29,823 nt of DNA from Planctomycetota bacterium. GTDB taxonomy: Bacteria; Planctomycetota; SZUA-567; H5-PLA8. The notes beneath the pieces were generated by a model. It worked only from the letters and a program-made list of their open reading frames with translations, had not been told where the DNA came from and did no database searches. Where the stretch lies: NCBI GenBank assembly GCA_045863855.1, contig BTVV01000075.1, positions 1 through 29,823 of the forward strand. Direction: 5' to 3'. The position numbers and the translations under genes were made by a program. Shown piece by piece: positions 1 to 25,564 of this stretch. Position 1 is the stretch's first letter. The number at the start of each line of letters is the position of its first letter.

Positions 1-1
1 G

Positions 2-895
2 CATTTCCAGGACGAGTACCTGCGGGATCTGCAGCCGGAGTCCTGGGTGCCGGCGGCGTACAAGGGCAAGCCCTACAACATCTTCGAGACCGGGGGCACG
101 ACGGGCATGCCGAAGCAGCGGATCGGCTGGAACGACTACAAGGTCGATTACTCCGAGTTCAGCGACAAAATCTCGGACGCCCATTTCCCGAGGGGCGGGG
201 CGTGGCTGATGATGGGTCCGACCGGGCCGCGGCGGCTGCGGCTGGCGATCGAGCATCTGGCCAACGTGCGCGGCGGCTCGTGCTTCCACGTCGATCTCGA
301 TCCGCGCTGGGTCGTCAAGCTGCTGGGCAAGCAGGACGTCGAGACGGCGAACCGCTACAAGGATCACGTGATCGATCAGGCGGTGACGATTCTGAAACAC
401 CGCACGGTGAACTGCCTGTTCACGACGCCAAAGCTGCTCGAGGCGCTGGGCGAGCGGATCAACGTGCCGGGTGTGGGGATCAAGGGCGTCTTTTGCGGCG
501 GGACGAGCATGACGCCGCAGATGGTGCGCTTCTTGAGCGAGGAAGTGCTCGAGAATAAGGCACGCTTCGTGCCGACCTACGGAAATACGCTGATGGGCTT
601 GGCGTGCAGCCGTCCGCTGGAGCCGGCGGATAAGTGGAGCGCGACGTACTACGCGCCTCAGCCGCGCGCGATGCTGCGCGTGGTCGAGCCGAAAGACACG
701 ACGCGCGAGGTTTCGTACGGTCAATACGGGCGCGTCGAGCTGACGACACTGACCAAAGAACTGTTCATGCCGCGCTTTCTGGAGCGCGACGAGGCGATCC
801 GGCGCGAGCCGTGCGCGCTGTATCCGTGGGACGGCGTCGGCGACGTGCGCCCGTTCGGGGCGCTGGAGAAGAAGGTCGTGGAAGGCGTGTACTAA
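2..895 (+). CDS. Atypical ANL-family adenylating enzyme (EhpF-like / LuxE-like acyl-activating protein), 5'-truncated
   Basis: The frame is open from the window edge (HFQDEYLRDLQPESWVPAAY...). It has a P-loop-like ETGGTTGMPK, YGNT (variant of YGxTE) and GRVELTTL...RFLERD (variant of RYxTGD). It ends at VVEGVY with no C-terminal ANL subdomain. The stop overlaps the next start (TAATG, 893-897). Confidence 0.7.
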   Translation, partial: HFQDEYLRDLQPESWVPAAYKGKPYNIFETGGTTGMPKQRIGWNDYKVDYSEFSDKISDAHFPRGGAWLMMGPTGPRRLRLAIEHLANVRGGSCFHVDLDPRWVVKLLGKQDVETANRYKDHVIDQAVTILKHRTVNCLFTTPKLLEALGERINVPGVGIKGVFCGGTSMTPQMVRFLSEEVLENKARFVPTYGNTLMGLACSRPLEPADKWSATYYAPQPRAMLRVVEPKDTTREVSYGQYGRVELTTLTKELFMPRFLERDEAIRREPCALYPWDGVGDVRPFGALEKKVVEGVY

Positions 896-2331
896 TGAGC
901 CTGCCGCATATCCCTGTTTTGCGCTTCGGATCCGCGTACGAGAGCCTCGACACGAGCGAGGTGAAAGACTGCCGCACGGGCACGGTCTTGGCGAAGCTGA
1001 GCATCGCCAACGCGGGGCTGGTGCGGCGCGATCTGCAGACGCGGCAGCGCGGGGCGTTCGAGGCGCTGCAGCGCGTGCCGATGGCGCGGTTGCTCGAGAT
1101 TTGCGCGAAGGCCGGCGAACACTTCATGCGTTCGACGCTGCCGCTGGGTGCCGCACATTCGCAAAGCGCCGACGAATACGTGCGGATGTTGAGCGCCACG
1201 AGCGGGCTGCCGCACGCGATGTGCCGCCGGAACATGGAGAAAATCAACCACGTCCTGACGCGCATGCCCGAAATTTTGAAGGGACTCACGCGCGGGCTGG
1301 AATTGAGCGTGCTTGACGGCGGCATGGGCGAGCAGAGCGGGGTGCCGGTCTGCTACGTGCCGCAGAGCCAGGCGCTGGGCATCGTGCTTCCGAGCAATTC
1401 GCCGGGGGTGCATTCGCTTTGGGCGCCGTCGATCGCGTTGAAGACGCCGCTGGCGCTGAAGCCCGGGCGCGAGGAACCGTGGACGCCCTACCGGTTGCTG
1501 CAGGCGTTCCTCGCCGCCGGCTGTCCGGCGGAAGCGCTGGGCTTTTATCCGTGCGATCACGACGGCGCGGAGGCGATACTGCGGCTGTGCGGGAGGGGGA
1601 TGCTTTTCGGCGACGCGAAGACGACGGCGCGTTACGCGAGCAACCCGGGCATTCAGTTGCACGGTCCGGGGTTCAGCAAGGTGCTGATCGGCGCGGATCA
1701 GGCGGAGCGCTGGCAGGACCACTTGGATGTGATCGTGGAATCGATCGTCGCCAACGGCGGGCGCAGTTGCGTGAACGCGTCGGCGGTGGTGACGGCGAAG
1801 CACGGCCGCGCACTGGCGGAGGCGCTGGCGGAGCGGCTGGGTCCGCTGAGTCCGAAGGCGGCGGACGATCCGGAGGCGGCGTTGAGCGCGTTCGCGAATC
1901 GAGCGTTCGCGGAGTCCATCGACGACGCGATCGAAGAGGGCTTGAAGACGCCCGGCGCCGAGGACCTGACGGCGCGCTATCGGCAGGGGCCGCGCCGGGT
2001 AGTCTTCGAGGGCGCAACGTACCTGCGGCCGACGGTGATCTGGTGCTCGAGCTTCGAGCATCCGCTGGCGAACCGCGAGTATCTGTTCCCGTATGCAAGT
2101 GTGGTGGAGGTTCCGCAGGAGCGGATGCTGGAGCAGATCGGCCCGTCGCTAGCAGTGACGGCGCTGACGAAGGATGAGGCGTTCCGGCGCGAGTTGGTGC
2201 TTTGCGCGCAGATCGACCGATTGAATCTGGGCCCGGTGCCGACGGGGCATGTGCGTTGGGACCAGCCGCATGAAGGGAACCTGTTCGAGTTTTTGTACCA
2301 CCGGCGCGCGATTCAGCGGGTGGAAGCGTGA
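895..2331 (+). CDS. Aldehyde dehydrogenase superfamily protein, probably acyl-reductase/acylating type (478 aa)
   Basis: Start placed at ATG 895, coupled to the upstream stop, rather than 634. Motifs: PSNSP, LKPGREEP, catalytic-Cys region GGRSCVNAS and NREYLFP. HGPGFSK sits where hydrolytic ALDHs have ELGGK. Confidence 0.85.
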   Translation: MSLPHIPVLRFGSAYESLDTSEVKDCRTGTVLAKLSIANAGLVRRDLQTRQRGAFEALQRVPMARLLEICAKAGEHFMRSTLPLGAAHSQSADEYVRMLSATSGLPHAMCRRNMEKINHVLTRMPEILKGLTRGLELSVLDGGMGEQSGVPVCYVPQSQALGIVLPSNSPGVHSLWAPSIALKTPLALKPGREEPWTPYRLLQAFLAAGCPAEALGFYPCDHDGAEAILRLCGRGMLFGDAKTTARYASNPGIQLHGPGFSKVLIGADQAERWQDHLDVIVESIVANGGRSCVNASAVVTAKHGRALAEALAERLGPLSPKAADDPEAALSAFANRAFAESIDDAIEEGLKTPGAEDLTARYRQGPRRVVFEGATYLRPTVIWCSSFEHPLANREYLFPYASVVEVPQERMLEQIGPSLAVTALTKDEAFRRELVLCAQIDRLNLGPVPTGHVRWDQPHEGNLFEFLYHRRAIQRVEA

Positions 2332-2399
2332 AGGAACGGTCCGGTACGCGACATCTGGAGTAAGGAGGCCCGTCCTGGGCACGGGCTTGGAGCAGCGGC

Positions 2400-3581
2400 A
2401 TGACGGCAGCGCCGACCGGATTCGATTACCTGCCTCGCACGCGTGTGGTGTATGGGCAAGGCGCACTGGCGCGGGTGGGCGAGTTGACGCGCGAACAGGG
2501 CGTCTCGCGCGTGATGTTGGTTACCGATCCGGGAGTGGTCAAAGCCGGGCATGCGGAACGCGCCCTGCGCAGCCTTGAGACCGCGGGCCTGCACGTCACG
2601 CGTTTCGAGCGTGTCAAAGAGAATCCCACCACGCGCGAAGTGGACGAATGCCTGGCGGCGGCCAAGGACGCGCGCATCGACGGGCTGGTCGGGTTGGGCG
2701 GGGGGAGTGCGATGGACACCGCCAAGGGCTGCAATTTTTTATTCACCAATGGCGGACGGATGCAGGATTACTGGGGCGTCGGCAAGGCGACTCGGGAGAT
2801 GCTCCCGCTGGTCTGCATTCCGACGACGGCCGGCACGGGAAGCGAATGCCAATCGTTTGCACTGATCGCGGATGCCGAGTCGCACCAGAAGATGGCCTGC
2901 GGCGATCCGAAGGCTTCGGCGCGAGTGGCGATCCTGGACCCTGAATTGACGCTTTCGCAGCCGCGGCATGTGGCGGCGAACACGGGCATCGATGCGCTGA
3001 CGCATGCGGTGGAGTCGGCGGTGACGAACCGGCGCAACGAACTTTCGTGGCTCTTCGCTCGGGAAGCGTTCGTGCGCGGGCGTTCGGCGTTGCCGGCGGT
3101 GCTGTCGCATCCGGAGGATGTCACCGCGCGCGGGCGGATGCAGTGGGCGGCGGCGCTGGCCGGCATGGCGATCGAGAACAGCATGCTGGGCGCGGCGCAT
3201 TCGGCGGCCAATCCGCTGACGGCGCACTACGGGATCGTCCACGGGCAGGCGGTGGGTGCGATGCTGCCGCATGTGGTGCGCTTTAACGCTCGGGACGAGG
3301 CGTCGCGCGCGATATACGCCGAGTTGGCGGTAACGGCCGAAGTGGTGGAGACCGGGCGGGACCCCGCCACCGCGGTGGCGGCCTTGATCCGCTGCCTGGA
3401 AGAGCTGCTAGACCGCTGCGCCGTGCCTCGTGCCCTGGAAGCGTATGGCGTGGAACGCGCGAAGCTGCCGACGCTTGCGCGCGAAGCCGCGGGGCAGTGG
3501 ACGGCGCAGTTCAATCCGCGCCCGATCGCGGCGCCCGATTTTCTGAAGCTTTACGAGGCGGCCTATTCCGGTCAGGCCTGA
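2400..3581 (+). CDS. Iron-containing alcohol dehydrogenase
   Basis: Motifs GLGGGSAMDTAK, IPTTAGTGSE, ILDPELT, GIDALTHAVES and the metal-binding His residues in AAHSAANPL...HG. GGAG RBS upstream. Confidence 0.93.
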   Translation: MTAAPTGFDYLPRTRVVYGQGALARVGELTREQGVSRVMLVTDPGVVKAGHAERALRSLETAGLHVTRFERVKENPTTREVDECLAAAKDARIDGLVGLGGGSAMDTAKGCNFLFTNGGRMQDYWGVGKATREMLPLVCIPTTAGTGSECQSFALIADAESHQKMACGDPKASARVAILDPELTLSQPRHVAANTGIDALTHAVESAVTNRRNELSWLFAREAFVRGRSALPAVLSHPEDVTARGRMQWAAALAGMAIENSMLGAAHSAANPLTAHYGIVHGQAVGAMLPHVVRFNARDEASRAIYAELAVTAEVVETGRDPATAVAALIRCLEELLDRCAVPRALEAYGVERAKLPTLAREAAGQWTAQFNPRPIAAPDFLKLYEAAYSGQA

Positions 3582-3600
3582 CTCGCGGGGAAGGTCCGAG

Positions 3601-4833
3601 ATGCGCGGTATTATAACGGTGCTCCTCATTGTGGGATTGGCGGTGACGGGAGGGTTGATCCTCCGTTCGGGACAGCCCGACGCCGAGCGCTTGGAGCAAT
3701 TGCGCCAGGAAGTTCGAGAGCGCAAGGCGCGCGCCATCGCTCCGGTGACGCCGGCGCCGCAGGCGATCTGGCCGATGTACCGCCACGACCGCGGACTCTT
3801 GGGGCGCACCGGGGAGGCACTCGAGACGCCGTTGACGCTGCGCTGGAGCTTCAAGACCGGCGGCCCGGTGAAGTCTTCTGCGGCGGTGCTGGGCGACCGG
3901 GTTTATGTGGGCAGCAACGACAACCACTTGTACGCGCTCGAATTTTCGACGGGGCGCGAGATCTGGAAATTCAAGACCGGCGGCGCGGTGGAGTCGTCCC
4001 CGCTGCTTTCGAAAGGTCGAGTCTATTTCGGCTCCGAAGACGGCAAGCTGTACGCGCTCGAGGCGGCGGATGGAAAACTCGCCTGGTCGTTCGAGACGCA
4101 AGGCAAGGTGCTTGGCGCTCCGAATTACGCGCCGCGACTGGATATTCCCGGCGACTGGATCGTCTTCGGCAGCTACGACAACAGCGTGTATGCGGTGGAC
4201 GCCTTGACGGGTAAGGAAGGCTGGCGCTGCGAGATGAATAACTACATCAATGGCGCGCCGGCCGTGGCGGGCGAACATGCGGTTTTCGGCGACTGCGACG
4301 GGAAGCTTTCGCACGTGAGCCTGCGCAACGGCGCGGTGGAGCGGCAGGTGGAGGTGGGCGCGCCCATCGCCGCATCGCCCGCAGTGCTGGGCGACCGCGC
4401 GTATTTCGGGCATTACGGCAACGAATTTGTTTGCGCCGACCTGAAGACCGGGCAGCGCGTGTGGACTTATAAGGATGAGGATTTTCCGTATTTCAGCAGT
4501 CCGGCGGTGGGCGGAAACAGGGTGGTGTTTGGTGGCCGCGACAAACGGTTGCATGCGCTGAATCTCGAGAGTGGGGAGCGGCAGTGGGTCTTCGCGACGC
4601 GCGGACGCGTAGACAGCGCGCCGGTGATCACGGGAGACGGCAAGGTGGTCGTGGGTTCGAACGACGGCCGGCTGTACGTGGTCGGGCTCGAGACTGGAAC
4701 CGAAGTCTGGAGTTACGAGATCGGCGATTCGATTTCTGCTTCGCCGGCGGTGGTGGCCGGATGCGTAATCGTCGGTTCGGAGGACGGGTCGGTCTACGCG
4801 TTCGGGCCGGATCAGAAGGAGGCGCGGCCATGA
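3601..4833 (+). CDS. Membrane-anchored PQQ-binding-like (BamB-type) beta-propeller repeat protein
   Basis: An N-terminal hydrophobic helix (IITVLLIVGLAVTGGLIL) is followed by WPMYRHD and about 8 ~40-aa repeats of the form W-x-F-x-T-x-G...SSP...VYxGSxDGxLYAL...G. Confidence 0.88.
   Translation: MRGIITVLLIVGLAVTGGLILRSGQPDAERLEQLRQEVRERKARAIAPVTPAPQAIWPMYRHDRGLLGRTGEALETPLTLRWSFKTGGPVKSSAAVLGDRVYVGSNDNHLYALEFSTGREIWKFKTGGAVESSPLLSKGRVYFGSEDGKLYALEAADGKLAWSFETQGKVLGAPNYAPRLDIPGDWIVFGSYDNSVYAVDALTGKEGWRCEMNNYINGAPAVAGEHAVFGDCDGKLSHVSLRNGAVERQVEVGAPIAASPAVLGDRAYFGHYGNEFVCADLKTGQRVWTYKDEDFPYFSSPAVGGNRVVFGGRDKRLHALNLESGERQWVFATRGRVDSAPVITGDGKVVVGSNDGRLYVVGLETGTEVWSYEIGDSISASPAVVAGCVIVGSEDGSVYAFGPDQKEARP
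3844..4100 (+). repeat. Intragenic 120-bp repeat units (beta-propeller blades)
   Basis: tggagcttcaagaccggcggcccggtgaagtc (3844) matches tggaaattcaagaccggcggcgcggtggagtc (3964). tgtacgcgctcga also recurs 120 bp apart (3929, 4049). Confidence 0.75.
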
Positions 4834-6170
4834 GCACCGAAGCGCGCCCGGCGCCCGGCGCGCCGCAATCTCCGGATGCGACCGAAGCGGGCAACTACTT
4901 CGTCAGCAATTACCCTCCGTTTTCGTGCTGGAGCGAATCGCACTTGGGCGACGCGCGCGCGGCGCTGGCGCGGCCGCCGGCACCAGGCACGGAACTGGGC
5001 ATCTACCTGCACATTCCATTTTGCCGCAAGCGCTGCCACTTCTGCTATTTCAAGGTCTATACGGAAAAGAATTCCACGGAGATCAAGCGTTACCTCGACG
5101 CGGCGCTGCGCGAACTGGAGCATTACGGGAAGCAGCCGTTCGTGGGCGGTCGGAAACCGAGCTTCGTGTATTTCGGGGGCGGCACGCCGTCGTATTTGTC
5201 GGCCGATCAGTTGCGTTACCTGACCGATGGCATGCGTAAGCTGTTGCCTTGGGATCGAGTACAAGAGGTGACCTTCGAGTGCGAGCCAGGGACGCTCACG
5301 GAAGCCAAGCTCAAGGTCATTAAGGAGCTTGGCGTCACGCGGCTCTCGCTTGGCGTGGAGCACTTCGACGATCACATCCTGGAAGTGAACGGGCGGGCGC
5401 ACCGCGGGGCGGAGATCGCGCGCGCGTACGAGTTCGCGCGGAGCCTCGATTTTCCGCAGCTTAATATCGACCTGATCGCGGGGATGGTCGAAGAGACCGA
5501 AGCGAAGTGGGAAATGGCGGTGGGCCGGGCGCTGGAGCTGGCTCCAGACAGCGTCACGATTTACCAGATGGAAGTGCCCTACAACACGACGATCTACAAG
5601 CAGATGAAGAGCGAGGGCAAGCTGACGGCTCCGGTGGCCGATTGGCCGACCAAACGGCGCTGGGTGGACGAGGCGTTCAAGCGTTTCGAGGCGGCGGGGT
5701 ACACCGTCGCCAGCGCATACACAGTGGTCAAGGATCCGGCGCGGACGAAGTTCCGTTACCGCGATTATCTTTGGGCAGGCGCCGATCTGATTGGCGTGGG
5801 CGTGGCCTCGTTCGGACATATCGGCGGCACGCACCTGCAGAATCTTTCCGATTTCGAGTCGTACCTGGCAAAGCTGGATGCGGGCGAGCCGCCGCTGTGG
5901 CGCGCGCTGACGCCGACGGCCGAAGAGCGTTTCGTGCGCGAGTGGATCCTGCAGCTCAAGCTGGGCCGCGTGCGCGCTTCGTATTTCCAACAGAAGTTCG
6001 GCGTCGATCCGCGCGTGCGTTTCAAGACGGAGTTGGCGGATCTGGAGCGCCGGGGATTGTTTGAAGTGGCGGGCGACGAAGTGAAGGTAGCGCGAGCGGG
6101 CTTGCTGCAGGTGGACCGCCTGCTGCATGAGTTCTTTTTGCCGCAGCACCGGAACATTCGGTACACGTAG
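4830..6170 (+). CDS. HemN-like (coproporphyrinogen III oxidase family) radical SAM protein (446 aa)
   Basis: ATGA overlap with the upstream stop. CxxxCxxC motif in YLHIPFCRKRCHFCYF, plus YFGGGTPS, TRLSLGVE, NIDLIAG and GVGVASFG. Confidence 0.9.
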   Translation: MSTEARPAPGAPQSPDATEAGNYFVSNYPPFSCWSESHLGDARAALARPPAPGTELGIYLHIPFCRKRCHFCYFKVYTEKNSTEIKRYLDAALRELEHYGKQPFVGGRKPSFVYFGGGTPSYLSADQLRYLTDGMRKLLPWDRVQEVTFECEPGTLTEAKLKVIKELGVTRLSLGVEHFDDHILEVNGRAHRGAEIARAYEFARSLDFPQLNIDLIAGMVEETEAKWEMAVGRALELAPDSVTIYQMEVPYNTTIYKQMKSEGKLTAPVADWPTKRRWVDEAFKRFEAAGYTVASAYTVVKDPARTKFRYRDYLWAGADLIGVGVASFGHIGGTHLQNLSDFESYLAKLDAGEPPLWRALTPTAEERFVREWILQLKLGRVRASYFQQKFGVDPRVRFKTELADLERRGLFEVAGDEVKVARAGLLQVDRLLHEFFLPQHRNIRYT

Positions 6171-6178
6171 GAGGCGGC

Positions 6179-6742
6179 ATGGCGGATCGACCTTCGACGA
6201 CTTCGTTGCCCGCGCTGCGCTTCCTGCTTGCGCCGCTAGCTGATTTTTGCGCCGCGGACGGACGCGCGCTTCCGCTGCTGGAGGAATGCGCCGGGGAGGA
6301 GGTTCCCGAGCCGTACCGCGGCCTGCTGGTCCACAACGGCGACATGACGCCGACGCTGGAGCGGTATCACGGGGATACGCTGCATCTGCGTATCCTGGGC
6401 AAGCGCATGCAGAGCGACCGCTTGGCGCGGCAGGTGCTGCTGCTGACCGATGCGACCGAGCGTCCGGTGGAGTACGGCGCCATCGAGATCCGCCTCGATC
6501 GCTTCGAGGCGGCGGCGCGCGAAGAGATCGAAGCCTGCCGCAAGCCCTTGGGCGCGATCCTGCGCGACCGGAACATTCCGCACAGCAGCCGGCCCACGGC
6601 TTACTTTCGCGTTGCGGGCGACCGATTCGTCTGCGACGCGCTGAACGTGGCGGGAACGCCCAAGCTGTACGGTAGGCGCAATACGCTGCGCGACGAGCAA
6701 GGCCGCACGCTGGCGGAGATCGTCGAGATTCTTCCGCTGTGA
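6179..6742 (+). CDS. Chorismate pyruvate-lyase-like protein (UbiC / Rv2949c / DUF98 fold)
   Basis: The pattern LLVHNGDMTPTLE...RQVLL...VEYG...PLGAIL...YGRRNTL...IVEILP parallels the chorismate-lyase fold (LL.TDGS.T..L, R.V.L, PLG.LL, R.Y, I.E.F). GGAGG RBS. Confidence 0.6.
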   Translation: MADRPSTTSLPALRFLLAPLADFCAADGRALPLLEECAGEEVPEPYRGLLVHNGDMTPTLERYHGDTLHLRILGKRMQSDRLARQVLLLTDATERPVEYGAIEIRLDRFEAAAREEIEACRKPLGAILRDRNIPHSSRPTAYFRVAGDRFVCDALNVAGTPKLYGRRNTLRDEQGRTLAEIVEILPL

Positions 6743-6763
6743 GGCCAAGTTGGGGAGAGGGAT

Positions 6764-8050
6764 ATGACGCCATCCGGGACGTACGAAACGATCGTGGTCG
6801 GCGGAGGCCCGGCGGGCAGCACGGCGGCGGCGCTGCTAGCCGAGAAGGGCCGCAAGGTCCTGCTGCTGGAGAAGAGCCGGTTTCCGCGCTACCACATCGG
6901 GGAGTCGCTGATTCCATTTTGTTACTTCACGCTCAAGCGCCTGGGCCTGATCGAGAAGCTGGATAAGAGCGGGTTTACGGTCGACAAGTACAGCGTGCAG
7001 TTCGTGAGCACGAACGGGAAGCTGTCGCAGCCGTTCTACTTCGATGAGCATCTGGATCATCCGTGTTCCCACACGTGGCAGGTCTGGCGTCAGGATTTCG
7101 ACCGGATGCTTTTGGCCAATGCGCGCGAGAAGGGCGCCGAAGTGCGCGAGGGCTGGCAGGTCAAGGAAGTGCTGGAGGATAGCGGACGTACGGTGGGCGT
7201 GCGCGTGCTGGACGAGGCGGGCACGGAACACGAGTTCCGTGCGCCGATGACGATCGACGCGACCGGACGCGACGCTCTGAGCGTCGCGCGGCGCGGCTGG
7301 CGCGTACGCGATCCTTACCTGAATAAGATCGCCGTGTGGACCTATTACAAAGGTGCGACCCGGCCACCGGGCAAAGATGGCGGTGCGACGATCGTGGCCT
7401 TCGTTCCGGAGCGAGGCTGGTTTTGGTGGATTCCGCTGGCACACGACACGGTGAGCGTGGGCGTGGTCGCGGAGAAGGACTACTTGTTCCGGGAGACACG
7501 GGATCTGGCGCAGGTCTTCGCGCAGGAAGTGAAGCAGAACCGCTGGATCGAGGAGCATCTTGCGGCGGGAACGCCTTCGGGCGAGTTCCGTACGACGGGC
7601 GAATTTTCGTACCGCTCGAAGTATTGCGCGGCGGATGGCCTGCTGCTGGCTGGGGACGCGTTCGCGTTCCTCGATCCTGTTTTCAGTTCGGGCGTATTTC
7701 TGGCACTGAAGGGCGGCGAAATGGCGGCGGACGCGGTTGACGCGGCGTTGAGCGCCGGGGACGTTTCGGCCGCGCGATTCGCGGCGTATTCCGAAGCGTA
7801 CTGCCACGGGCTGGAGTCGATGCGGCAATTGGTGTACGCGTTCTACGACGTGAATTTCCATTTCCGGGATCTGTTTTCGAAGTACCCGGAGACCCGCGGG
7901 GCGCTGACGGACTGCCTGATCGGCGATCTGCACCGCGATTACAAGCCGCTCTTCGACAAGGTTAAAGAGTTCGCGAGCGTGCCGGCGCCGCTTGCGCATG
8001 GCCGCCCGCTGATCGGTGCGGAAGGGAGCGCGTGCGCGTCGCCCAGTTGA
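6764..8050 (+). CDS. Flavin-dependent halogenase-like NAD(P)/FAD oxidoreductase
   Basis: GGGPAG FAD motif, FPRYHIGESL, Lys75 in GFTVDKYSVQF, the WxWxIP signature (WFWWIP, residues 219-224) and GDAFAFLDPVFSSG. Confidence 0.8.
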   Translation: MTPSGTYETIVVGGGPAGSTAAALLAEKGRKVLLLEKSRFPRYHIGESLIPFCYFTLKRLGLIEKLDKSGFTVDKYSVQFVSTNGKLSQPFYFDEHLDHPCSHTWQVWRQDFDRMLLANAREKGAEVREGWQVKEVLEDSGRTVGVRVLDEAGTEHEFRAPMTIDATGRDALSVARRGWRVRDPYLNKIAVWTYYKGATRPPGKDGGATIVAFVPERGWFWWIPLAHDTVSVGVVAEKDYLFRETRDLAQVFAQEVKQNRWIEEHLAAGTPSGEFRTTGEFSYRSKYCAADGLLLAGDAFAFLDPVFSSGVFLALKGGEMAADAVDAALSAGDVSAARFAAYSEAYCHGLESMRQLVYAFYDVNFHFRDLFSKYPETRGALTDCLIGDLHRDYKPLFDKVKEFASVPAPLAHGRPLIGAEGSACASPS

Positions 8051-9336: not shown

Positions 9337-9748
9337 ATTTAAGGTGACGCGGCGGGTGGAATTCGGCGAGACGGATGCGGCTGGGATCATGCATTTCTCG
9401 AACTTTTTCCGGTTCATGGAGACGGCCGAACATGCCTTCTTTCGGTCGCTGGGGTTCTCGATTCATCCGCGCGAGCAGGACGGCGCTGTGGGCTGGCCGC
9501 GCGTGCAGGCGAGTTGCGAATACCGCAAGCCGCTGCGCTTCGAGGACGAGGTGGAGATCCACCTGCGCGTGCTGGAAAAGCGGGAGCGAGTGCTGCGGTA
9601 CGAGTTTGTGTTCCGGAAAGGCGGCGAGGAGGCCGCGCGCGGCCAGCTTGCCGTGGCGTGCGTGCGCAAACAGCCGGACGGCACGTTGAAGGCGGTGCCC
9701 ATTCCGGCCGAGATCGCGGCGCGCATCGAGCCGGCCGCGGGCGGATGA
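9326..9748 (+). CDS. Hot-dog-fold acyl-CoA thioesterase (4HBT/YbgC family)
   Basis: RRVEFGETDAAGIMHFSNFFRFME with Asp17, and CEYRKPLRFED. 140 aa. Confidence 0.9.
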   Translation: MASEFKVTRRVEFGETDAAGIMHFSNFFRFMETAEHAFFRSLGFSIHPREQDGAVGWPRVQASCEYRKPLRFEDEVEIHLRVLEKRERVLRYEFVFRKGGEEAARGQLAVACVRKQPDGTLKAVPIPAEIAARIEPAAGG

Positions 9749-9783
9749 ATTCCGCTCTTCATGCAACCAGGAGAGTCATTGCG

Positions 9784-10353
9784 ATGCCACCCGAACAGTC
9801 GATTTCCGGCGGAAGCAGTTGGCTGTTGTACGCGCTGCTGACCGTGGCTTCGTGGGGCCTGTACGGCGCCTTCCTGCATACGGGCCAGTTGGCGATGAAG
9901 GATCCCGAGAACGGGCGCTACAAAGCGTTTCTGCTCGTGGGCGTAGCGTACTTCCTGACGGCGGTTCTCGCGCCGCTGGCGATTCTTTGGTTCAACAAGG
10001 TCGAGCTGAAGTCTATCACGCAGCCGGGCATGCTGTGGTCGCTTTTCGCGGGCATTGTGGGTGCGCTCGGCGCGTTCTGCGTGCTGCTCTCGCTGGGCGC
10101 GGGCGGCAAACCGATCTTCGTGATGAGCGTTGTTTTCGCCGGCGCGCCGGTGGTCAACGCGCTGTACTCGATCGTCACGCATCCACCGGACGGAGGCTGG
10201 AGCAGCGTGAAGCCGCAGTTCTGGCTGGGGATCGTGCTGGCGGCATCGGGCGGGGCGCTGGTTTCTCTTTATAAGCCTCCACCGCCTAAGGCTCCGTCGG
10301 CGCAGACTGCGCCGAGCGTGCCCAGCGGCGCTCCGGCGCCCGGCGCTTCGTGA
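9784..10353 (+). CDS. Small multi-pass membrane protein (DMT/EamA-like)
   Basis: About 5 hydrophobic segments (WLLYALLTVASWG..., LWSLFAGIVGALGAFCVLL, GAPVVNAL, GIVLAASGGALV) and a Pro-rich tail. AGGAG lies 10 nt before ATG 9784; an alternative coupled start is ATG 9745. Confidence 0.7.
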   Translation: MPPEQSISGGSSWLLYALLTVASWGLYGAFLHTGQLAMKDPENGRYKAFLLVGVAYFLTAVLAPLAILWFNKVELKSITQPGMLWSLFAGIVGALGAFCVLLSLGAGGKPIFVMSVVFAGAPVVNALYSIVTHPPDGGWSSVKPQFWLGIVLAASGGALVSLYKPPPPKAPSAQTAPSVPSGAPAPGAS

Positions 10354-11657
10354 GCGCGTACGCGATGGATACCTCCGCCGCACCGGACGACCGGCTGGAA
10401 CTGGAGCGGACGCAACTCGAACGATTGCGCGTCTTGCTGGCGGCGTTGCAGCCGGCGAATGCGTTTTATGGCAAGAAGCTGAGCGGACTCAAGCTGGACG
10501 GTTCACTCGCTGAATTCATGGCGAAAGCGCCCTTTACCTTAAAGCGTGAGTTAATCGAAGATCAGCAGGCGCACGGTCCATTCGGCTCGAACCTGACGTA
10601 CCCGTTGGAACGCTATACGCGCTTTCATCAGACCAGCGGCAGCATGGGCCGGCCGATGCGCTGGCTGGATACAGCGGAGGATTGGCAGGCGCTGCTGGAG
10701 TGCTGGAAGCGCGTTTTCGCGGCGGCTCATGTAGGCGCTTCGGACCGCGTATTCTTCGCGTTCTCGTTCGGGCCGTTCCTGGGCTTCTGGACCGCGTTCG
10801 AAGCCGCGCTTCAACTTGGTTGCATGTGCATTCCCGGAGGCGGGATGAGCAGCCAAGCGCGGCTGCAGGCGATCCTCGAGAACGAAGCCACGGTGCTGTG
10901 CTGTACGCCCACGTACGCTCTGCGTCTGGCGGAAGTGGCGCGCGAGGAAGGCTTGCGGATGGAGCGCTCGCGGGTGCGAACAATTCTGGTGGCGGGCGAA
11001 CCGGGCGGTTCGGCGCCGGCCACGCGTCTGCGTATCGAGCAACACTGGCCGGGCGCGCGCGTGTACGATCATCACGGCATGACGGAAGTGGGCCCGGTGA
11101 GCTACGCATGCCCCGCGCGTTCGGACGTGCTGCATGTGATCGAGGAGGCGTACCTCGCCGAAGTGGTGGATCCGCAAAGCGGAAGGGCGGCAACGCCGGG
11201 CAAGCCCGGCGAGCTGGTGCTGACGACTCTCCTGCGCACGGGCTCCCCGTTGCTGCGCTACCGTACGGGCGATTGGGTTCAGGCGGCCACCGTTTCGCCG
11301 TGTCCATGCGGAAGCGTGGAACTGGCGCTCGAAGGCGGTATCCTGGGCCGCACCGACGACATGGTGGTGGTGCGCGGGGTGAATGTGTACCCGAGCGCGG
11401 TGGACGAGGTGGTGCGTTCTTGCGGTGAAGTGGCCGAATACCGGGTGAGCGTATACGAGTCGCGCGGCATGACCGAGATCAAGGTGACGATCGAACCGGA
11501 TTCGAAATGCGCAGACGCTCAAGGATTGGCGCGGCGTTTGGAAGAACGGCTGCGCGAAGCGTTCCATTTGCGCGTACCCGTCGATACGGTCTCGAACGGC
11601 GCGCTGCCTCGGTTCGAAATGAAGGCCAAGCGCTGGGCGCGCCGGGATGCGGAATAG
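10350..11657 (+). CDS. Phenylacetate-CoA ligase family (PaaK-like) aryl/acyl-CoA ligase
   Basis: ANL motifs TSGSMG, GEPGG, HHGMTEVG, RYRTGD, GRTDDM...RGVNVYPS and C-terminal KAKR. GTGA overlap with the upstream stop. Confidence 0.9.
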   Translation: MSAYAMDTSAAPDDRLELERTQLERLRVLLAALQPANAFYGKKLSGLKLDGSLAEFMAKAPFTLKRELIEDQQAHGPFGSNLTYPLERYTRFHQTSGSMGRPMRWLDTAEDWQALLECWKRVFAAAHVGASDRVFFAFSFGPFLGFWTAFEAALQLGCMCIPGGGMSSQARLQAILENEATVLCCTPTYALRLAEVAREEGLRMERSRVRTILVAGEPGGSAPATRLRIEQHWPGARVYDHHGMTEVGPVSYACPARSDVLHVIEEAYLAEVVDPQSGRAATPGKPGELVLTTLLRTGSPLLRYRTGDWVQAATVSPCPCGSVELALEGGILGRTDDMVVVRGVNVYPSAVDEVVRSCGEVAEYRVSVYESRGMTEIKVTIEPDSKCADAQGLARRLEERLREAFHLRVPVDTVSNGALPRFEMKAKRWARRDAE

Positions 11658-11663
11658 ACGGCC

Positions 11664-12377
11664 ATGAGCGAGCAGGCGGGTAACGCTGCGTTGATGGAAT
11701 TGGAGCGCGTCGGCAAAGCGTACACGCCGCCGGCCGGCGGCGCTCCGGTGAGCGTGCTGCGTGGTATTGACCTGCGCATCGGTGCTGGAGAGTCGGTGGC
11801 CATCGTGGGGCCATCCGGTTCGGGCAAGAGTACGCTGCTGAATATCCTCGGTACGCTGGACCGGCCCTCGGAAGGGCGCGTGCGGCTGAACGGTGAGGAC
11901 CTCGCGGCATTGGACGACGAACAGCTCGCGCGCATTCGCAGCCGCAAGATCGGTTTTATCTTTCAAGCGCATCACTTATTGCCGCAGTGTTCGGTGCTGG
12001 AAAACGTGCTGCTTCCCACGCTCGTTCCGGGATTGGCGACGAACGGCGCCGAAGCGCGCGCGAAGGAACTGCTTGGAAGGGTCGGATTGTCCGAGCGGAT
12101 CGGCCACCGGCCGGGCGAGCTTTCGGGCGGCGAATGCCAGCGTGTGGCGGTGGTTCGGGCGTTGATCAACCAGCCCGTGGCGGTGCTGGCCGACGAGCCG
12201 ACAGGCGCGCTGGACGGCGAGCACGCCGATCGGCTCGCGGATTTGCTGGTCGAATTGAACCGCGATTTGGGCTTGACGCTGGTCGCGGTTACGCACGCGC
12301 CGGCGCTGGCGGCGCGCATGGGCCGGGTGCTGGAATTGCGCGGCGGGCAGCTACGGCCGGCGGATCGAACGTCATGA
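11664..12377 (+). CDS. ABC transporter ATP-binding protein (LolD/MacB-type)
   Basis: Walker A GPSGSGKST, IGFIFQ, signature LSGGECQRVA, Walker B LADEPTG and VTH. Confidence 0.95.
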   Translation: MSEQAGNAALMELERVGKAYTPPAGGAPVSVLRGIDLRIGAGESVAIVGPSGSGKSTLLNILGTLDRPSEGRVRLNGEDLAALDDEQLARIRSRKIGFIFQAHHLLPQCSVLENVLLPTLVPGLATNGAEARAKELLGRVGLSERIGHRPGELSGGECQRVAVVRALINQPVAVLADEPTGALDGEHADRLADLLVELNRDLGLTLVAVTHAPALAARMGRVLELRGGQLRPADRTS

Positions 12378-15300
12378 ATTTCGCCACGCTGGTGCGGCGG
12401 AGTTTGCGCTATCACGGCCGCGCGCAAGCGGGGGTCATGCTGGGTGCGGCGGTGGGGAGCGCGGTGCTGGTCGGCGCGCTGCTGGTCGGCGATTCGGTTC
12501 GATACACGTTGAAGCAGATGGCCGCGGCGCGGCTGGGGCCGGTGGACTATGCGCTGGTGGGCGGCGACCGGCTTTTTCGAGAAGGACTGAGCGCCGACAT
12601 GGCCAGAAGCACCGGAGGCCGCGCGGCTCCGGTGCTGCTTGTTCCGGGCACGGCCGCGCGTTCCGATGGCGCCGCGCGCGCCAACCGAGTGCAGGTGCTC
12701 GGCACGGATTGGCGGTTCTGGGACCTGAGCCAAATTCCGGACCCGTTCGATTCCAAACCGCATCCATTCGTGGCGCCGGCGCCCGAAGTCGTATGGCTGA
12801 ACGAGCGGCTGGCCAATCATTTAAAGGCGAACGTAGGCGACGAAGTCGTTCTGCGGGTGCAGAAGCCGAGCCTCTTTTCGCGCGATGCGCCACTTGCTCC
12901 GGAAGAAGATTCGAGCGTAGCCCTGCGCCTTAAGGTGGGTGCCGTGGCCGGCGACGCACAGTTCGGGCGGTTCGGCCTGCAGGCCAGCCAGGTGCCTCCG
13001 TTCACCGCCTTCGTGCCGCTGCGACTGCTGCAGACGAAACTGGACGCGCCACGGCGCGCCAACCTGCTGCTGCTGGACGCCGACGGCTTGCCGCTTGAGC
13101 GCGTGCAGGCGGCGCTTGCCGAATCCTGGAGTCTCGACGACGCGGGGTTGAGCGTGCGCGAAACGCCGGAGGGCGGCTGGGAATTGCGTTCGGCGCATGT
13201 CTTCTTCGATGCCGCAGTTCGCGATGCGGCATTGGGCGTCGAGACGAATCCGGCCCCGCGTGGCGTGCTGACGTACCTCGTGAACGAGATTCGATTCGGG
13301 GAGCATACGGTTCCGTACAGCATGGTCACGGCGCTGGAAGGCGACCCGGCGCCGGCCGATTTGCGCCCCGACGAGATCGTCGTGAACGCTTGGCTGGCCG
13401 AGGATTTGGGATGCAAGCCGGGCGACAGGATCGAGCTTGCTTATTTCGTGGTCGGGCCGATGCGTACGCTGGTGGAGGAATCTGCGGAGTTCAAGGTGCG
13501 GTCGATCGTCCCTCTTTCTGGAGCGGCCGCGGATGCTACGATGATGCCTGACTTTCCAGGATTGAAGGACAGCGCGTCCTGCCGCGAATGGGATCCGGGC
13601 TTTCCGCTGAAGGTCGACAAGATCCGGGACCGCGACGAAGAATACTGGGACGCGCATAAAGGCACGCCCAAAGCGTTTATCTCGTTGGCGGCGGGCCGAT
13701 CCTTGTGGCAAAGCCGCTTCGGCGATTTGACCGCTGTTCGATACGGCGGCGATACATCGGCCGAAGATCTGGATGTCGCCTTGCGTGCACGGCTGACGCC
13801 GGCGCTCGTGGGACTTACCTTCGAAGCCGTGTCTGAGAGAGCGGCGCGTGCAAGCGCGGAGGCGCTCGACTTTGGACCGCTCTTTCTGGGCTTCAGTTTC
13901 TTTCTTATTTCCTCGGCGTTGCTGCTGTTGGGCCTGCTTTTCGGTTTTGCGCTCGAACGGCGCACGGAGGAGATCGGAATACTTTTGGCACTCGGATTTC
14001 CGCGCGCCTGGGTGCGGCGCATGTTGTTGACGGAAGGCGCGGCGGTAGCGCTGCTGGGCGGCGTGCTGGGCGCCGCGGCAGGCGCGGCGTATGCGCGCGC
14101 GATGCTGTACGGGCTATCCACCGCGTGGCAAGATGCCGTCGGCACCGGGACGCTCTATTATCACGCCGAGCCGCTCACCTGGGTGCTGGGACTGAGCGTA
14201 TCCACGGCGCTGGCGGTGTTGTCGGTGGCGTTCGTATTGCGCCGCCAGAGCTGCCGTTCCGCGCGGGAGTTGCTTTCGCACGGCGCGGGATTGGCCCTCT
14301 CGGCCAATGGCGGAACGAGTCGGCTTACTTGGGGGGTAGCGCTGGGCGGAATCTTCGGTGCTGCCGCGCTGGCGTTTGTTTTTTGGGGCCGGCGCGATCC
14401 GGCCGCGGCGGGCGTTTTTTTCGGCGCGGGCGCGTTGCTGCTTTCGTCGGGCATCGCGGGCTGCGGACTGGCGCTGCGCGGTCTCGGCTCGTCGGCCGCG
14501 CGATTCTCGCTGGGGCGGCTGGCCTTACTGGGCATGGCGCGGCGTCCGGGGCGGAGTTTGGCGACCGTGGGGCTGTTGGCTTCGGGGTCCTTCCTGGTGG
14601 CCGCGGTGGGTGCGTTTCGACTCGATGCGGACCAAGGCGCGCAAGAGCGCCATTCGGGTACGGGCGGCTTCACGTTTTACGGCGAGAGTGCGTTTGCCGT
14701 GGTGCATGACCTGAGTTCGAAAGACGGCCGGCGCATGTACGCGCTGGACGACGAATACATGGCCGACGTGAGCTGGGTTCCGTTTCGCCTGCAGCCGGGC
14801 GACGAAGCGAGTTGTTTGAATTTGAATCGCGCGCAGGCGCCGCAGGTGCTGGGCGCGCCGGTGCAGGCACTGGCCGAGCGCCAGGCGTTTGCGTTTGCGG
14901 AGGTCATGCCGGGCCGTGAGGCGGCCGGAAGCCCCTGGACCTTGCTCGAAGCGGAAGAGCCGGACGGCGCAATTCCGGCTATGGTCGATCAGAACTCGCT
15001 GCTCTGGGCCTTAGGCAAGCAGGTGGGCCAGACGCTGACGCTCACCAACGAGCGCGGCCAAGCGTTCACCGTTCGCGTAGTGGCCGCCTTGGCTCCGAGT
15101 GTTCTTCAAGGCAGCGTAATCTTGAGTGAGCAGGCATTCATGAAACAGTACCCTACGGTTTCCGGATATCGAATATTTCTGGTGGACGCACCGTTTAACC
15201 GTCAGGATACCCTCTTGGCGTATCTGTCGCGCCAGTTGCAGGATACGGGCATGGAACTGATGCCCGCGGCGCGGCGGCTGGCCGAGTTCAATGCCGTGCA

Positions 15301-15682
15301 GAATACCTACCTGTCCACATTTCAGGTGCTGGGCGGATTGGGGTTGATGCTAGGCAGTTTGGGACTGGGTGTGGTTGTGCTTCGTAACGTACTGGAACGG
15401 CGCGGCGAATTGGGCGTGATGCGCGCGGTCGGGTTCCCGTCGGCCGTCCTGGGCAAGGTGCTGTTGGGCGAGCACGCGGCGCTGTTGTCAGCGGGTTTGG
15501 GGTGCGGGTTATGCGCAGCGGCACTGGCGGTATGGCCCGCGCTGCACGGAAGTTCCGCCGCCTTGCCCGTCTCGCTGCTGGCGACGCTGGCCGCTGTTTG
15601 GTTGCTGGGCTTACTGGTGACTTGGGCCGCCACGCGCGCCGCCTTGAGCGGCGAACCGCTGGCCGCACTGCGCCAGGAGTAA
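12374..15682 (+). CDS. ABC transporter permease, duplicated FtsX/MacB-type (~1102 aa)
   Basis: Start at the ATGA overlap (12374), not 11987. Two FtsX-like motifs (ERRTEEIGILLALGF and ERRGELGVMRAVGF), two large extracytoplasmic domains and multiple TM helices. Confidence 0.88.
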   Translation: MNFATLVRRSLRYHGRAQAGVMLGAAVGSAVLVGALLVGDSVRYTLKQMAAARLGPVDYALVGGDRLFREGLSADMARSTGGRAAPVLLVPGTAARSDGAARANRVQVLGTDWRFWDLSQIPDPFDSKPHPFVAPAPEVVWLNERLANHLKANVGDEVVLRVQKPSLFSRDAPLAPEEDSSVALRLKVGAVAGDAQFGRFGLQASQVPPFTAFVPLRLLQTKLDAPRRANLLLLDADGLPLERVQAALAESWSLDDAGLSVRETPEGGWELRSAHVFFDAAVRDAALGVETNPAPRGVLTYLVNEIRFGEHTVPYSMVTALEGDPAPADLRPDEIVVNAWLAEDLGCKPGDRIELAYFVVGPMRTLVEESAEFKVRSIVPLSGAAADATMMPDFPGLKDSASCREWDPGFPLKVDKIRDRDEEYWDAHKGTPKAFISLAAGRSLWQSRFGDLTAVRYGGDTSAEDLDVALRARLTPALVGLTFEAVSERAARASAEALDFGPLFLGFSFFLISSALLLLGLLFGFALERRTEEIGILLALGFPRAWVRRMLLTEGAAVALLGGVLGAAAGAAYARAMLYGLSTAWQDAVGTGTLYYHAEPLTWVLGLSVSTALAVLSVAFVLRRQSCRSARELLSHGAGLALSANGGTSRLTWGVALGGIFGAAALAFVFWGRRDPAAAGVFFGAGALLLSSGIAGCGLALRGLGSSAARFSLGRLALLGMARRPGRSLATVGLLASGSFLVAAVGAFRLDADQGAQERHSGTGGFTFYGESAFAVVHDLSSKDGRRMYALDDEYMADVSWVPFRLQPGDEASCLNLNRAQAPQVLGAPVQALAERQAFAFAEVMPGREAAGSPWTLLEAEEPDGAIPAMVDQNSLLWALGKQVGQTLTLTNERGQAFTVRVVAALAPSVLQGSVILSEQAFMKQYPTVSGYRIFLVDAPFNRQDTLLAYLSRQLQDTGMELMPAARRLAEFNAVQNTYLSTFQVLGGLGLMLGSLGLGVVVLRNVLERRGELGVMRAVGFPSAVLGKVLLGEHAALLSAGLGCGLCAAALAVWPALHGSSAALPVSLLATLAAVWLLGLLVTWAATRAALSGEPLAALRQE

Positions 15683-15704
15683 GTCGTAAAGGAGGCATGT
15701 AACG

Positions 15705-16343
15705 ATGCGCACGATCTGGATCTGTTGTCTGGCCGCGTGGGCGTGCGGGTGGGCGATGGCCGGCGAACCCGAAGCCCACAAGGACGATTTACAGCAAGCG
15801 GAACTTGGACCCCTTCCCGAGCGCTTCATGGTATTAGGCGGCACTTGGACGGTAGCCGCGGAAGGCGAGAACAAGTATCTGGAACTGGCGCCGCATCCGC
15901 TGGAGTCGCATTGCGTGCTCTTCGGTCCGACGCTGGCTGCCGGCGGCATCGTGTCGGGGCGCATCCAAAGCACCCAAAAGGGGCGACGGAGCTTCCCCTC
16001 GTTCGGCTTCGGATTGGGTGGCGTCACGGGGTTCATGCTGCGGTTTTCGCCCGCCAAGGGCAAGCTGGAACTTCTGCTGGATCAGCAACCGTTGGCGGAA
16101 GCGGACGCGCCCGAATGGAAGAGCGGTTCGTGGATGCGGCTTAAGTTTCAGGTGCGCAAGGGCGAAGGCGAGACGTGGATACTGGAAGGCAAGGCTTGGG
16201 CGGACGGCCAAGCGGAACCCGAAAACTGGTCCATCAAGCATGAATCGAAGGAAGCGCCGCCTGCGGGCCGAGCGGGGCTATGGGGTATGCCCTATGCGGG
16301 CACGCCGATTCGATTCGACGATCTGGATGTCCGCGCGCCGTGA
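15705..16343 (+). CDS. Exported hypothetical protein, likely beta-sandwich (LamG/DUF1080-like)
   Basis: Signal peptide (MRTIWICCLAAWACGWAMA) and strong AAAGGAGG RBS. Beta-rich pattern W.RLKFQV, GKAW...EP.W, GRAGLWG...IRFDDL.V. Confidence 0.65.
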   Translation: MRTIWICCLAAWACGWAMAGEPEAHKDDLQQAELGPLPERFMVLGGTWTVAAEGENKYLELAPHPLESHCVLFGPTLAAGGIVSGRIQSTQKGRRSFPSFGFGLGGVTGFMLRFSPAKGKLELLLDQQPLAEADAPEWKSGSWMRLKFQVRKGEGETWILEGKAWADGQAEPENWSIKHESKEAPPAGRAGLWGMPYAGTPIRFDDLDVRAP

Positions 16344-16346
16344 ATA

Positions 16347-16727: not shown

Positions 16728-16967
16728 AATAACGCATTTTTCCCGAAATCGACCAGTGCCGGAAGTTCTTCATTTCGAATGCACGGATGCAAACGCAAAA
16801 GCGTACCCCTCAGTCGGTATGACCTTTGCATTGCCCGCTCTTCGGGGTGTGAGGGACAGCGCGACAAGTCGAAATGGGGTAGCGCTGGCGGGAATCCCCA
16901 CACGGGTTCGTTCGACAGGCAAACAATGGGTGTTCATCGAACACCCCAGCAAGCGGAGCGCGATGCC

Positions 16968-20597: not shown

Positions 20598-20600
20598 GGC

Positions 20601-24517: not shown

Positions 24518-24541
24518 GCCGCGTGTGCGAAGGGGCCGAAC

Positions 24542-24868: not shown

Positions 24869-24891
24869 CGGCCGGTAGGAGTGCCTACGCC

Positions 24892-25524: not shown

Positions 25525-25564
25525 GCCCCCGTTTGGGGAGGCCGCGCCGGAGATGAGGTGAAGC

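Follow-up and report, generated by a model that had tools for sequence, protein, structure and literature searches.

What do the fourteen genes that open contig BTVV01000075.1 of a planctomycete genome (GCA_045863855.1; here genome G000, contig C75) make, and what use would the cell have for the product? The genes, which we call A to N, occupy positions 2–16343 of the window, that is, the first 29,823 bases of the contig, and all are on the plus strand. The original prediction was that they form one operon, continuing to the left of the window, for the carrier-protein-free synthesis and export of an aromatic compound. They are part of a real and widespread system that appears undescribed as a whole and whose enzymes come from known families. 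Our tentative reading is that the operon makes or salvages a halogenated, reduced 4-hydroxybenzoate derivative, without a carrier protein, for a periplasmic redox module, and that this product is cofactor-like, not an antibiotic.

Gene arrangement and distribution

All fourteen open reading frames (ORFs) are present, with successive gaps of -1, 68, 19, -4, 8, 21, -19, -11, -4, -4, 6, -4 and 22 nt from A to N. Each of the junctions named in the original prediction is found (TAATG at 893–897, ATGA at 4830, overlaps at 8032 and 9326, GTGA at 10350, and ATGA at 12374), together with a further ATGA start/stop overlap at 9745. Searches with Pfam, NCBIfam and PDB profiles uphold the family labels assigned earlier, and the nearest named homologues are in Planctomycetota and Verrucomicrobiota. 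The proposed extension to the left is also present: the upstream flank lies on contig C104 (reversed), which carries the N-terminus of gene A, an SSF symporter gene, and genes for four beta-propellers with pyrroloquinoline quinone (PQQ) repeats (u1–u4), and is collinear with genome G002 of the same genus at 92–93% identity. The full unit has at least 19 genes (u1–u4, the symporter gene and A–N); a small DUF3311 gene precedes the symporter gene in genome G001.

Positions 1 to ~240 of the window do not represent the host allele; they are a gene A tip of another organism joined on by the assembler, and the true gene joins C104 to C75. Over 164 nt this tip shares 70.7% identity with C104, while C104 matches G002 nearly letter for letter; the identity of the window to G002, taken per 60 nt, is 0.58–0.80 up to position 240 and at least 0.88 beyond, and DNA contigs of sequencing runs X2 and X3 carry the C104-type sequence before position 185. 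Because the tip is foreign, the full-length gene A of G002 was used as query. RNA-library contigs of related strains span several of the gene junctions but are possibly DNA-derived, and RNA runs X15–X18 gave only contigs from strains of 93–95% likeness or short pieces and are uninformative on transcription. Scans of the operon for promoters (one promoter-like site against 2.1 expected) and terminators (24 terminator-like sites against 15.8 expected, standard deviation 4.1) are similarly uninformative, and no riboswitch or other RNA was found in the operon or in six upstream loci, the only RNA elsewhere being that of the signal recognition particle (SRP).

That the genes belong together is borne out by their co-occurrence across 161 genomes sampled evenly from the phylum. 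Gene A has 46 matches at E 1e-20, of which 31 are close (E <1e-100) and 15 are distant (32–37% identity). Gene E matches exactly the 31 genomes with a close A, and the 39 matches to G include all 31 plus eight at 1e-63 to 1e-70. The co-occurrence holds even where A and E are 1–5 Mb apart (G093, G074 and G167). Gene order is retained within the family, from A to L in G001, A to M in G004 and G012, and A to N in G002 and G007, and there are five other genomes of the family in which F and G are present and the upstream genes are not beside them. Propeller u4 is in 26 of the 31 cluster genomes and four others (with eight candidates scored per genome, G167 was missed though its locus has one).

The entry genes F and K behave differently. 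F is present in 23 of the 31 genomes, and 23 of the 42 matches to K are orthologues in these same genomes (22 at E 1e-110 or better, and one a 55%-identical fragment at a contig end); the other 19 are at 38–43% identity and include two F-less cluster genomes. In the eight genomes without F and K the remaining cluster genes are present in varied order. F and K are thus an optional pair, while the thioesterase gene I stays. The SSF symporter is in all eight of the F/K-less genomes, in 15 of the 23 with F and K, and in one genome outside the cluster set. A benzoate-CoA ligase (CoA, coenzyme A) above cut-off is found in three of five F/K-less genomes and in none of five with F and K; a substitute lyase of PF01947 or PF04345 is in none of the five F/K-less genomes, although F itself matches neither family. 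As side observations, F adjoins the SSF symporter gene in G180 (L181; G180:C2:2722080-2724614), and in G186 a thiolase gene lies directly upstream of K (L132:3524-4705).

The system extends beyond the phylum. Among the best 80 of 539 matches to E, mostly in Verrucomicrobiota, with others in Acidobacteriota and Armatimonadota, and often in truncated loci, the neighbourhood contains F in 72, D in 59, G in 47, H in 28, I in 26, J in 18, K in 18, and A in six. Searches of whole genomes for the first 50 of these (mostly verrucomicrobial, with no negative control set) found A in 48 and G in 45. Identity across phyla is 50–70%. Gene clustering of the 80 loci, which covered ORFs of at least 100 aa, gave no further recurrent accessory genes, save shadow ORFs and sporadic inserts. 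The overall profile of the cluster (mostly single copy, kept after dispersal, with an optional de novo entry and an importer) resembles those of vitamins and cofactors. Cultured carriers of cluster genes include Gimesia-labelled strains with F homologues and Verrucomicrobium sp. BvORR034.

Enzymes predicted to act on an aromatic acid

Genes A and B have a GriC/GriD-type arrangement and are predicted to encode an aryl-acid reductase pair: an EhpF-type adenylase gene is followed directly by a gene for a protein of aldehyde dehydrogenase (ALDH) fold in which the catalytic cysteine is kept and the general-base glutamate is absent. EhpF is the sole homologue of A with a solved structure, and plasmid homologues with 34–39% identity carry the annotation 'arylcarboxylate reductase' or, in other cases, 'phenazine biosynthesis protein'. 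In B, Cys292 and His256 are invariant in 27 of 27 sequences, His256 replacing the glutamate of hydrolytic ALDHs; in those enzymes the cysteine is catalytic and the glutamate acts as the general base. B is 31% identical over its full length to the ALDH adjoining an A homologue in a Streptomyces cluster with DAHP synthase and PabB genes, and A/B homologues elsewhere also adjoin chorismate-branch genes. Neither A nor B matches LuxE or LuxC in Pfam. GriC and GriD are described as reducing an aryl acid via its adenylate (PMC10179220). The alcohol dehydrogenase C falls below every NCBIfam equivalog cut-off. We note Streptomyces plasmid clusters (L173:8953-18296 and L172:5856-12077), one with A/B homologues beside DAHP synthase and PabB genes and another with an 'arylcarboxylate reductase' amid genes of the futalosine pathway, as well as a second EhpF-like subfamily (32–37% identity) in 15 genomes without E (e.g. 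G137:C1:3463372 and G066:C1:3685588), including six of eight of one family.

G has the motifs of flavin-dependent halogenases: GxGxxG in 74 of 74 sequences, Lys75 in 73 of 74, the Ile-Pro of WxWxIP in all 74, and an FxDPxxSxG-type motif. Lys75 aligns with a lysine of 8ZOP, 5BUL and PltA and is one residue off in 3E1T; we take it to have the catalytic role of the corresponding residue in halogenases. GxGxxG, WxWxIP and Fx.Px.Sx.G are described as motifs of the family (PMC8407142), and the best NCBIfam model for G is CmlS. No acyl carrier protein (ACP) motif is present in window positions 1–16400 or in C104 positions 1–10200, and gaps of at most 68 nt leave no room for one, so the system is free of a carrier protein, as was proposed, and the cluster lacks the carrier protein that would accompany a variant-B halogenase. 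Halogenases of this type usually need a tethered substrate.

E is predicted to be a class C radical S-adenosylmethionine (SAM) enzyme, with CxxxCxxC, a HemN-type domain layout and no B12 domain, and YFGGGTPS is conserved in 106 of 106 aligned sequences. Its scores are below the cut-offs for HemN (179 of 325 bits), HemW (168 of 205) and ChuW (184 of 400). Paralogues of E and G, with 41–43% identity, are paired a second time (G000 C84:1335-2627 and C77:1373-2590; L108:9290-11845; L109:9324-12128; L110; L111), which suggests that E and G act together. These paralogues are adjacent in G096 and G134 and separated in G000 and G002; their neighbours are a Fer4_5+TPR protein and a B12 radical SAM enzyme in G096, Rrf2 and a luciferase-like–ACP fusion in G134, and NorB and Rrf2 in G002.

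F has no Pfam match at all, and none to PF04345 or PF01947 at E up to 5. Its predicted structure (predicted local distance difference test score 93) has the chorismate pyruvate-lyase fold, superposing on AF1396 (DUF98) with Z 15.9 and a root-mean-square deviation of 2.4 over 142 aligned residues and on UbiC (1FW9) with Z 11.3 and a deviation of 3.4 over 137; UTRA domains score between the two (Z 9–12.6). Only 11–19% of the members of its neighbouring Atlas clusters carry PF04345 or PF01947. Residues R84, P123-L124-G125, R166 and E183 are invariant in 40 of 40 sequences and may correspond to the product-binding arginine, glutamate and PLG motif of UbiC. Gimesia-labelled homologues are among the named matches to F. 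K reaches 173 of the 646 bits needed for the PaaK phenylacetate-CoA ligase model, and is nearest to HCL (E 1e-52) and PaaK (3e-49), then to NatL2 and AjiA1 (E 1e-29 to 1e-31).

Exported propellers and sister operons

The importer and three dedicated periplasmic propellers (u3, u4 and D) are part of the gene set. Propellers u1–u4 have signal peptides and PQQ repeats, u3 and u4 also have many invariant polar residues, and u4 is predicted to be an exported PQQ-repeat propeller. It lacks the marks of PQQ quinoprotein dehydrogenases, with no vicinal cysteine pair in its consensus and 33 bits against TIGR03075 and TIGR04528 cut-offs of 480 and 650, and profile and fold searches with u3 and u4 return generic propellers only. 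A search for pqqC found it in none of five genomes, though the control for this search was silent too. Two other groups were considered as clients of the product and rejected: TIGR02604 dehydrogenases of the Planctomycetes-Verrucomicrobia-Chlamydiae (PVC) group, none of which is above cut-off in the window genome, and PQQ-repeat proteins as a whole, since many propeller-rich genomes are without the core. Stand-alone and multidomain u4 paralogues of up to ~1700 aa are present at L148–L156, including the four pathway-less genomes of one family.

L and M are, from their sequences, a MacB/LolCDE-type ATP-binding cassette (ABC) transporter. The glycosyltransferase H, for which no plasmid match was found, has a conserved N-terminal CxxC (residues 15–18) that is unusual in glycosyltransferases and is a possible metal or redox site. 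Pfam and NCBIfam yield no name for F, J or N; we would guess that N has a lectin-like fold.

We also looked for H in five propeller-rich genomes lacking A, E, F and K, which were picked for their many propellers and are not a census. Four have an H orthologue. In three of these, from three families (G098, G171 and G127), H is with propellers, a NapH-like membrane polyferredoxin, a fused NuoEF and a GltD-like NAD(P)H oxidoreductase, and the G098 and G171 operons additionally hold an NHL propeller and D, L and M (L175 and L176 in G098; L177 and L178 in G171; L179 in G127). The verrucomicrobial locus L077 holds both modules, D to J followed by NHL, propeller and NapH-like genes (L077:11900-16500). 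The H/ABC/propeller part is thus found without aromatic enzymes and appears to be a separate module whose alternative partner is a wire for electrons from NAD(P)H to the membrane. Its position beside electron-transfer genes suggests a redox role, and also that the aromatic product is not necessarily a substrate of H. No description of this sister operon was encountered, though no search was aimed at one. The G098 operon is followed by genes for a B12 radical SAM enzyme, a squalene-cyclase-like protein and a polyprenyl synthase.

Beyond N, the window contains genes outside the operon (Table 1). The gene for the extracytoplasmic function (ECF) sigma factor 3′ of N, whose real start is probably near 16970, is syntenic in G002 and G007 and is a possible regulator; the others are housekeeping genes.

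Table 1. Features of the window and of the upstream contig
Feature	Position	Strand	Predicted identity	Basis or remark
Assembly tip	1..~240		Foreign	Low-depth, ~70%-identical gene A allele belonging to another organism
u1	C104 (reversed), 5′ of u2		PQQ-repeat propeller	442 aa
u2	C104 (reversed), 5′ of u3		PQQ-repeat propeller	463 aa
u3	C104 (reversed), 5′ of u4		PQQ-repeat propeller	791 aa
u4	C104 (reversed), 5′ of symporter		PQQ-repeat propeller	561 aa
Symporter	C104 (reversed), 5′ of A		SSF symporter	534 aa
A	2..895	+	EhpF/GriC-type aryl-acid adenylase, 3′ part	PDB EhpF E 1.8e-31; 359 aa in G002
B	895..2331	+	ALDH-fold acyl-adenylate reductase, GriD/EhpG type	Pfam, motif alignment
C	2400..3581	+	Iron-containing alcohol dehydrogenase	PF00465 E 1e-51
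D	3601..4833	+	Exported or membrane-anchored PQQ-repeat beta-propeller	PF13570, PF13360; hydrophobic N-termini in orthologues
E	4830..6170	+	HemN-like (class C) radical SAM enzyme, predicted C-methyltransferase	CxxxCxxC motif; nearest structures HemN, NocN
F	6179..6742	+	Chorismate pyruvate-lyase fold (DUF98/Rv2949c/UbiC), predicted 4-hydroxybenzoate former	Structure model, Atlas neighbours
G	6764..8050	+	Flavin-dependent halogenase-like, CndH/Bmp2/PltA/CmlS group	Motifs, NCBIfam
H	8032..9336	+	GT4 glycosyltransferase	Pfam; common to sister redox operons
I	9326..9748	+	4HBT/YbgC-type hot-dog thioesterase	Pfam/NCBIfam; retained in loci without F and K
J	9745..10353	+	Small EamA/DMT-like membrane protein, predicted exporter	EamA E 0.022, under cut-off; conserved
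K	10350..11657	+	PaaK-family ligase (CoA thioester or direct ester/amide), predicted	NCBIfam, homologue comparison
L	11664..12377	+	LolD/MacB-type ABC ATPase	Pfam, NCBIfam
M	12374..15682	+	Duplicated FtsX/MacB permease, 1102 aa	Pfam; recurs in sister operons
N	15705..16343	+	Exported 212-aa protein	Resembles C-terminal domain of u3; no family match
ECF sigma factor	16479..17531	+	Possible regulator	
SbcC/SbcD-like pair	17541..21920	-	Housekeeping	
SRP RNA	22226..22322	+	Housekeeping	
dnaX-ybaB-recR-rpoN	22484..27145	+	Housekeeping	

Proposed pathway, alternatives and known systems

In the pathway that we tentatively propose, F would cleave chorismate to 4-hydroxybenzoate and K would activate the acid, most simply as a CoA thioester; in strains without F and K the acid would be imported via the SSF symporter and activated by another aryl-CoA ligase. 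The tethered ring would then be halogenated by G and methylated by E, and I would release the acid, which A would adenylate, B reduce to the aldehyde, and C reduce to a benzyl alcohol. Export by J, L–M or both, possibly after glycosylation by H, would deliver the product to u3, u4 and D in the periplasm, to be bound or oxidised there in the role of a redox cofactor or mediator. The CoA-tethered scheme is chosen because no simpler chemistry would employ both activating enzymes and, between them, the thioesterase. A periplasmic redox use is suggested by gene context, namely by the exported propellers dedicated to the pathway and by the sister operons with their redox genes. The chain from chorismate through hydroxybenzoate, CoA ester, halogenation and release to reduction is that of the original prediction, and the folds and motifs of the enzymes fit it and leave it plausible; however, because I is kept in loci without F and K, a linear CoA route needs a substitute ligase there, or K acts otherwise. 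Glycosylation and subsequent export or envelope display were also proposed; the H/ABC/propeller part stands without the aromatic enzymes as well.

A more specific version, which we consider unlikely, is a diffusible trans-membrane redox shuttle of a kind not known in bacteria, in which the exported halo-methyl aryl alcohol is oxidised by u3, u4 or D and the acid re-imported via the SSF symporter and re-reduced by A, B and C. Re-reduction would cost ATP and two NAD(P)H, and F, K, G, E and I would only build the carrier. The loop would replace the wire of NuoEF, GltD-like and NapH-like proteins in feeding the same module of H, D, L, M and propellers, and would explain both the retention of the importer by producers and the loss of F and K.

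Several observations weigh against a cofactor-like redox role or against individual steps towards it. BamB and tetrathionate hydrolase, and not quinoprotein dehydrogenases, are the structures nearest to the u4 model; u4 stands alone in four genomes without the pathway, all of one family, and strong propeller matches occur in 28 of 130 non-cluster genomes, so the propeller family overall is independent of the pathway. In G183, the fourth core-less genome with H, this gene lies where a contig ends, and the visible stretch shows no redox genes. Searches of the window genome for NapH-like and NHL genes found none, and its NuoEF matches are only generic. The difference in importer content (8/8 vs 15/23) is weak (p 0.062, related genomes not being independent), two of the five F/K-less genomes have no benzoate-CoA ligase above cut-off, and the fold of F is common to UTRA ligand-binding domains. 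Similarly, neither a flavin reductase nor an electron acceptor is encoded in the operon, and the motifs of G are no proof of halogenation over hydroxylation, hydroxylases of the QhpG type having the same fold; QhpG also retains two tryptophans in the same channel (PMC7876137).

The product could instead be an exported secondary metabolite, which we regard as somewhat unlikely; the same chemistry would give a halo-hydroxybenzyl glycoside acting as signal, toxin or surface decoration, and the propellers would merely bind or scaffold it, a view near to the original prediction. Every enzyme family here is typical of natural-product clusters, and a planctomycete makes 3,5-dibromo-p-anisic acid via a proposed lyase–halogenase pair (10.1101/723874). 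COG0635, COG1541, COG0644 and COG1454 are not in the supplements of a P. limnophila transposon-insertion (TraDIS) study, in which five COG1520 genes are non-essential, and the V. spinosum files have no matches; the supplements give no product names, and neither strain was searched for the cluster. However, strict co-retention after chromosomal dispersal and the degree of identity across phyla are unusual for such clusters, as are an importer in 15 of 23 de novo producers and redox sister operons. A lipid pathway seems a little less likely again. F and K would be an optional 4-hydroxybenzoylation module, G would chlorinate an acyl alpha-carbon as CmlS does, A, B and C would reduce a long-chain hydroxy acid, and H and L–M would make and export a glycolipid, with alichondrichlorin an intermediate or shunt product. 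This compound, from a Planctomycetaceae strain, is a 2-chloro-3-hydroxy long-chain acid esterified at C-25 with 4-hydroxybenzoate, and its biosynthesis is given as unknown (PMC11848864); long-chain diols are reported in P. limnophila (PMC3035269), and NatL2, one of the homologues of K, forms esters without CoA (PMC7204872). A lipid would also agree with CmlS as the top model for G and explains why F and K are lost together while I is retained. Yet A and B fall in the aryl-acid reductase group and not with LuxE and LuxC, K is closer to the CoA ligases than to NatL2, and the distribution of PfaA-type synthases does not follow that of the cluster (10 of 31 cluster and 22 of 130 other genomes, two candidates scored per genome). 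The last result also counts against a glycolipid pathway linked to heterocyst glycolipids or polyunsaturated fatty acid (PUFA) synthases; a PfaA-type PUFA synthase is encoded in the window genome (C76:11621-17899), unlinked to the cluster.

The remaining explanations are less probable still. The genes could be two independent, co-regulated modules, one aromatic (A, B, C, E, F, G, I, J, K and the symporter) and one for the envelope (D, H, L, M and the propellers), given that H, D, L and M exist without the aromatic genes and that H is distant from the other genes in several dispersed genomes; we think this improbable, as the two sets are interleaved in many gene orders across families and phyla, and D lies within 59 of the 80 E loci. 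In a catabolic or detoxifying route, C and B would oxidise an aromatic alcohol or aldehyde that the cell takes up, and A or K would activate it. The importer, alcohol dehydrogenase, ALDH fold and PaaK-like ligase would have a place in such a route, but a chorismate-lyase fold belongs to biosynthesis, as do the halogenase, the radical SAM enzyme, the glycosyltransferase and the exporter; B is without the general-base glutamate, and ring-cleavage genes do not recur in the 80 loci. We consider this route very improbable. Phenazine tailoring is suggested by the match of A to EhpF and by the adjacency of ehpF and ehpG in phenazine operons (PMC11278526), yet phz genes do not recur in the 80 loci and PF03284 (phzA/B) is in none of five cluster genomes, though with a silent control; we give this explanation almost no weight.

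Of the known systems, GriC/GriD of grixazone and EhpF/EhpG of griseoluteic acid synthesis also have an adenylase and an ALDH-fold reductase that are adjacent and carrier-free. In contrast to those systems, the loci here have no core genes for 3-amino-4-hydroxybenzoate (3,4-AHBA) or phenazine, and the pair is joined to an iron-containing alcohol dehydrogenase, radical SAM enzyme, halogenase, GT4 enzyme, transporters and propellers and is conserved across phyla. In Planctomycetales strain 10988 a chorismate-lyase-like gene, baaA, adjoins a flavin halogenase gene, baaB, and the available part of that report mentions no reductase, radical SAM, glycosyltransferase or propeller genes. It likens BaaB to Bmp5 (~44%; 10.1101/723874). 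Bmp5 has no WxWxIP, whereas G is of the WxWxIP type of CndH, Bmp2 and PltA. This argues against identity of baaAB with F and G, a distinction drawn from the description and not from the BaaA and BaaB sequences; BaaA was not found among the named homologues of F.

The mycobacterial p-hydroxybenzoic acid derivative (p-HBAD) and phenolic glycolipid pathway uses Rv2949c, FadD22, glycosyltransferases and ABC export, and shares with the operon a DUF98-type lyase, aryl ligase, glycosyltransferase and exporter; the operon differs in having no polyketide synthase (PKS) or ACP and in having a halogenase, radical SAM enzyme, aryl reductase and importer. Mycofactocin and PQQ are small redox cofactors with radical SAM, flavoprotein and glycosyl tailoring and dehydrogenase-fold clients, some genomes having clients but no pathway. 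The same cofactor logic may apply here, although no precursor peptide was found, the product of the operon would be chorismate-derived, and its propellers are without quinoprotein hallmarks. White-rot fungi cycle chlorinated anisyl alcohol, reduced inside the cell and oxidised outside; this too is a halogenated, 4-hydroxybenzoate-derived alcohol, but the enzymes are unrelated and the likeness is one of analogy only. The system is thus comparable to GriC/GriD with a bmp/baa-type lyase–halogenase entry and p-HBAD-like glycosylation and export, and is as a system a member of none of these. The papers searched, with subscription papers and MIBiG outside the search, contain no description of the cluster and, as first supposed, no product assigned to it, and a review from 2025 on metabolites of planctomycetes mentions neither chorismate nor radical SAM nor PQQ (PMC12078418).

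Roughly one in five of the genomes sampled from the phylum (31/161) has the pathway; it is found across Verrucomicrobiota as well, and in some members of Acidobacteriota and Armatimonadota. With no PKS or nonribosomal peptide synthetase core, it offers cluster finders nothing to catch, and as there are cultured carriers it can be tested directly. If the product is a metabolite or lipid, the cluster would be a candidate origin both for planctomycete compounds whose pathway is not known and for the natural organohalogens of soils, fresh waters and the sea. If it is a cofactor or shuttle, this would provide the first function for a subset of the 'PQQ-like' propellers of PVC bacteria, and would add a chorismate-derived, halogenated redox carrier.

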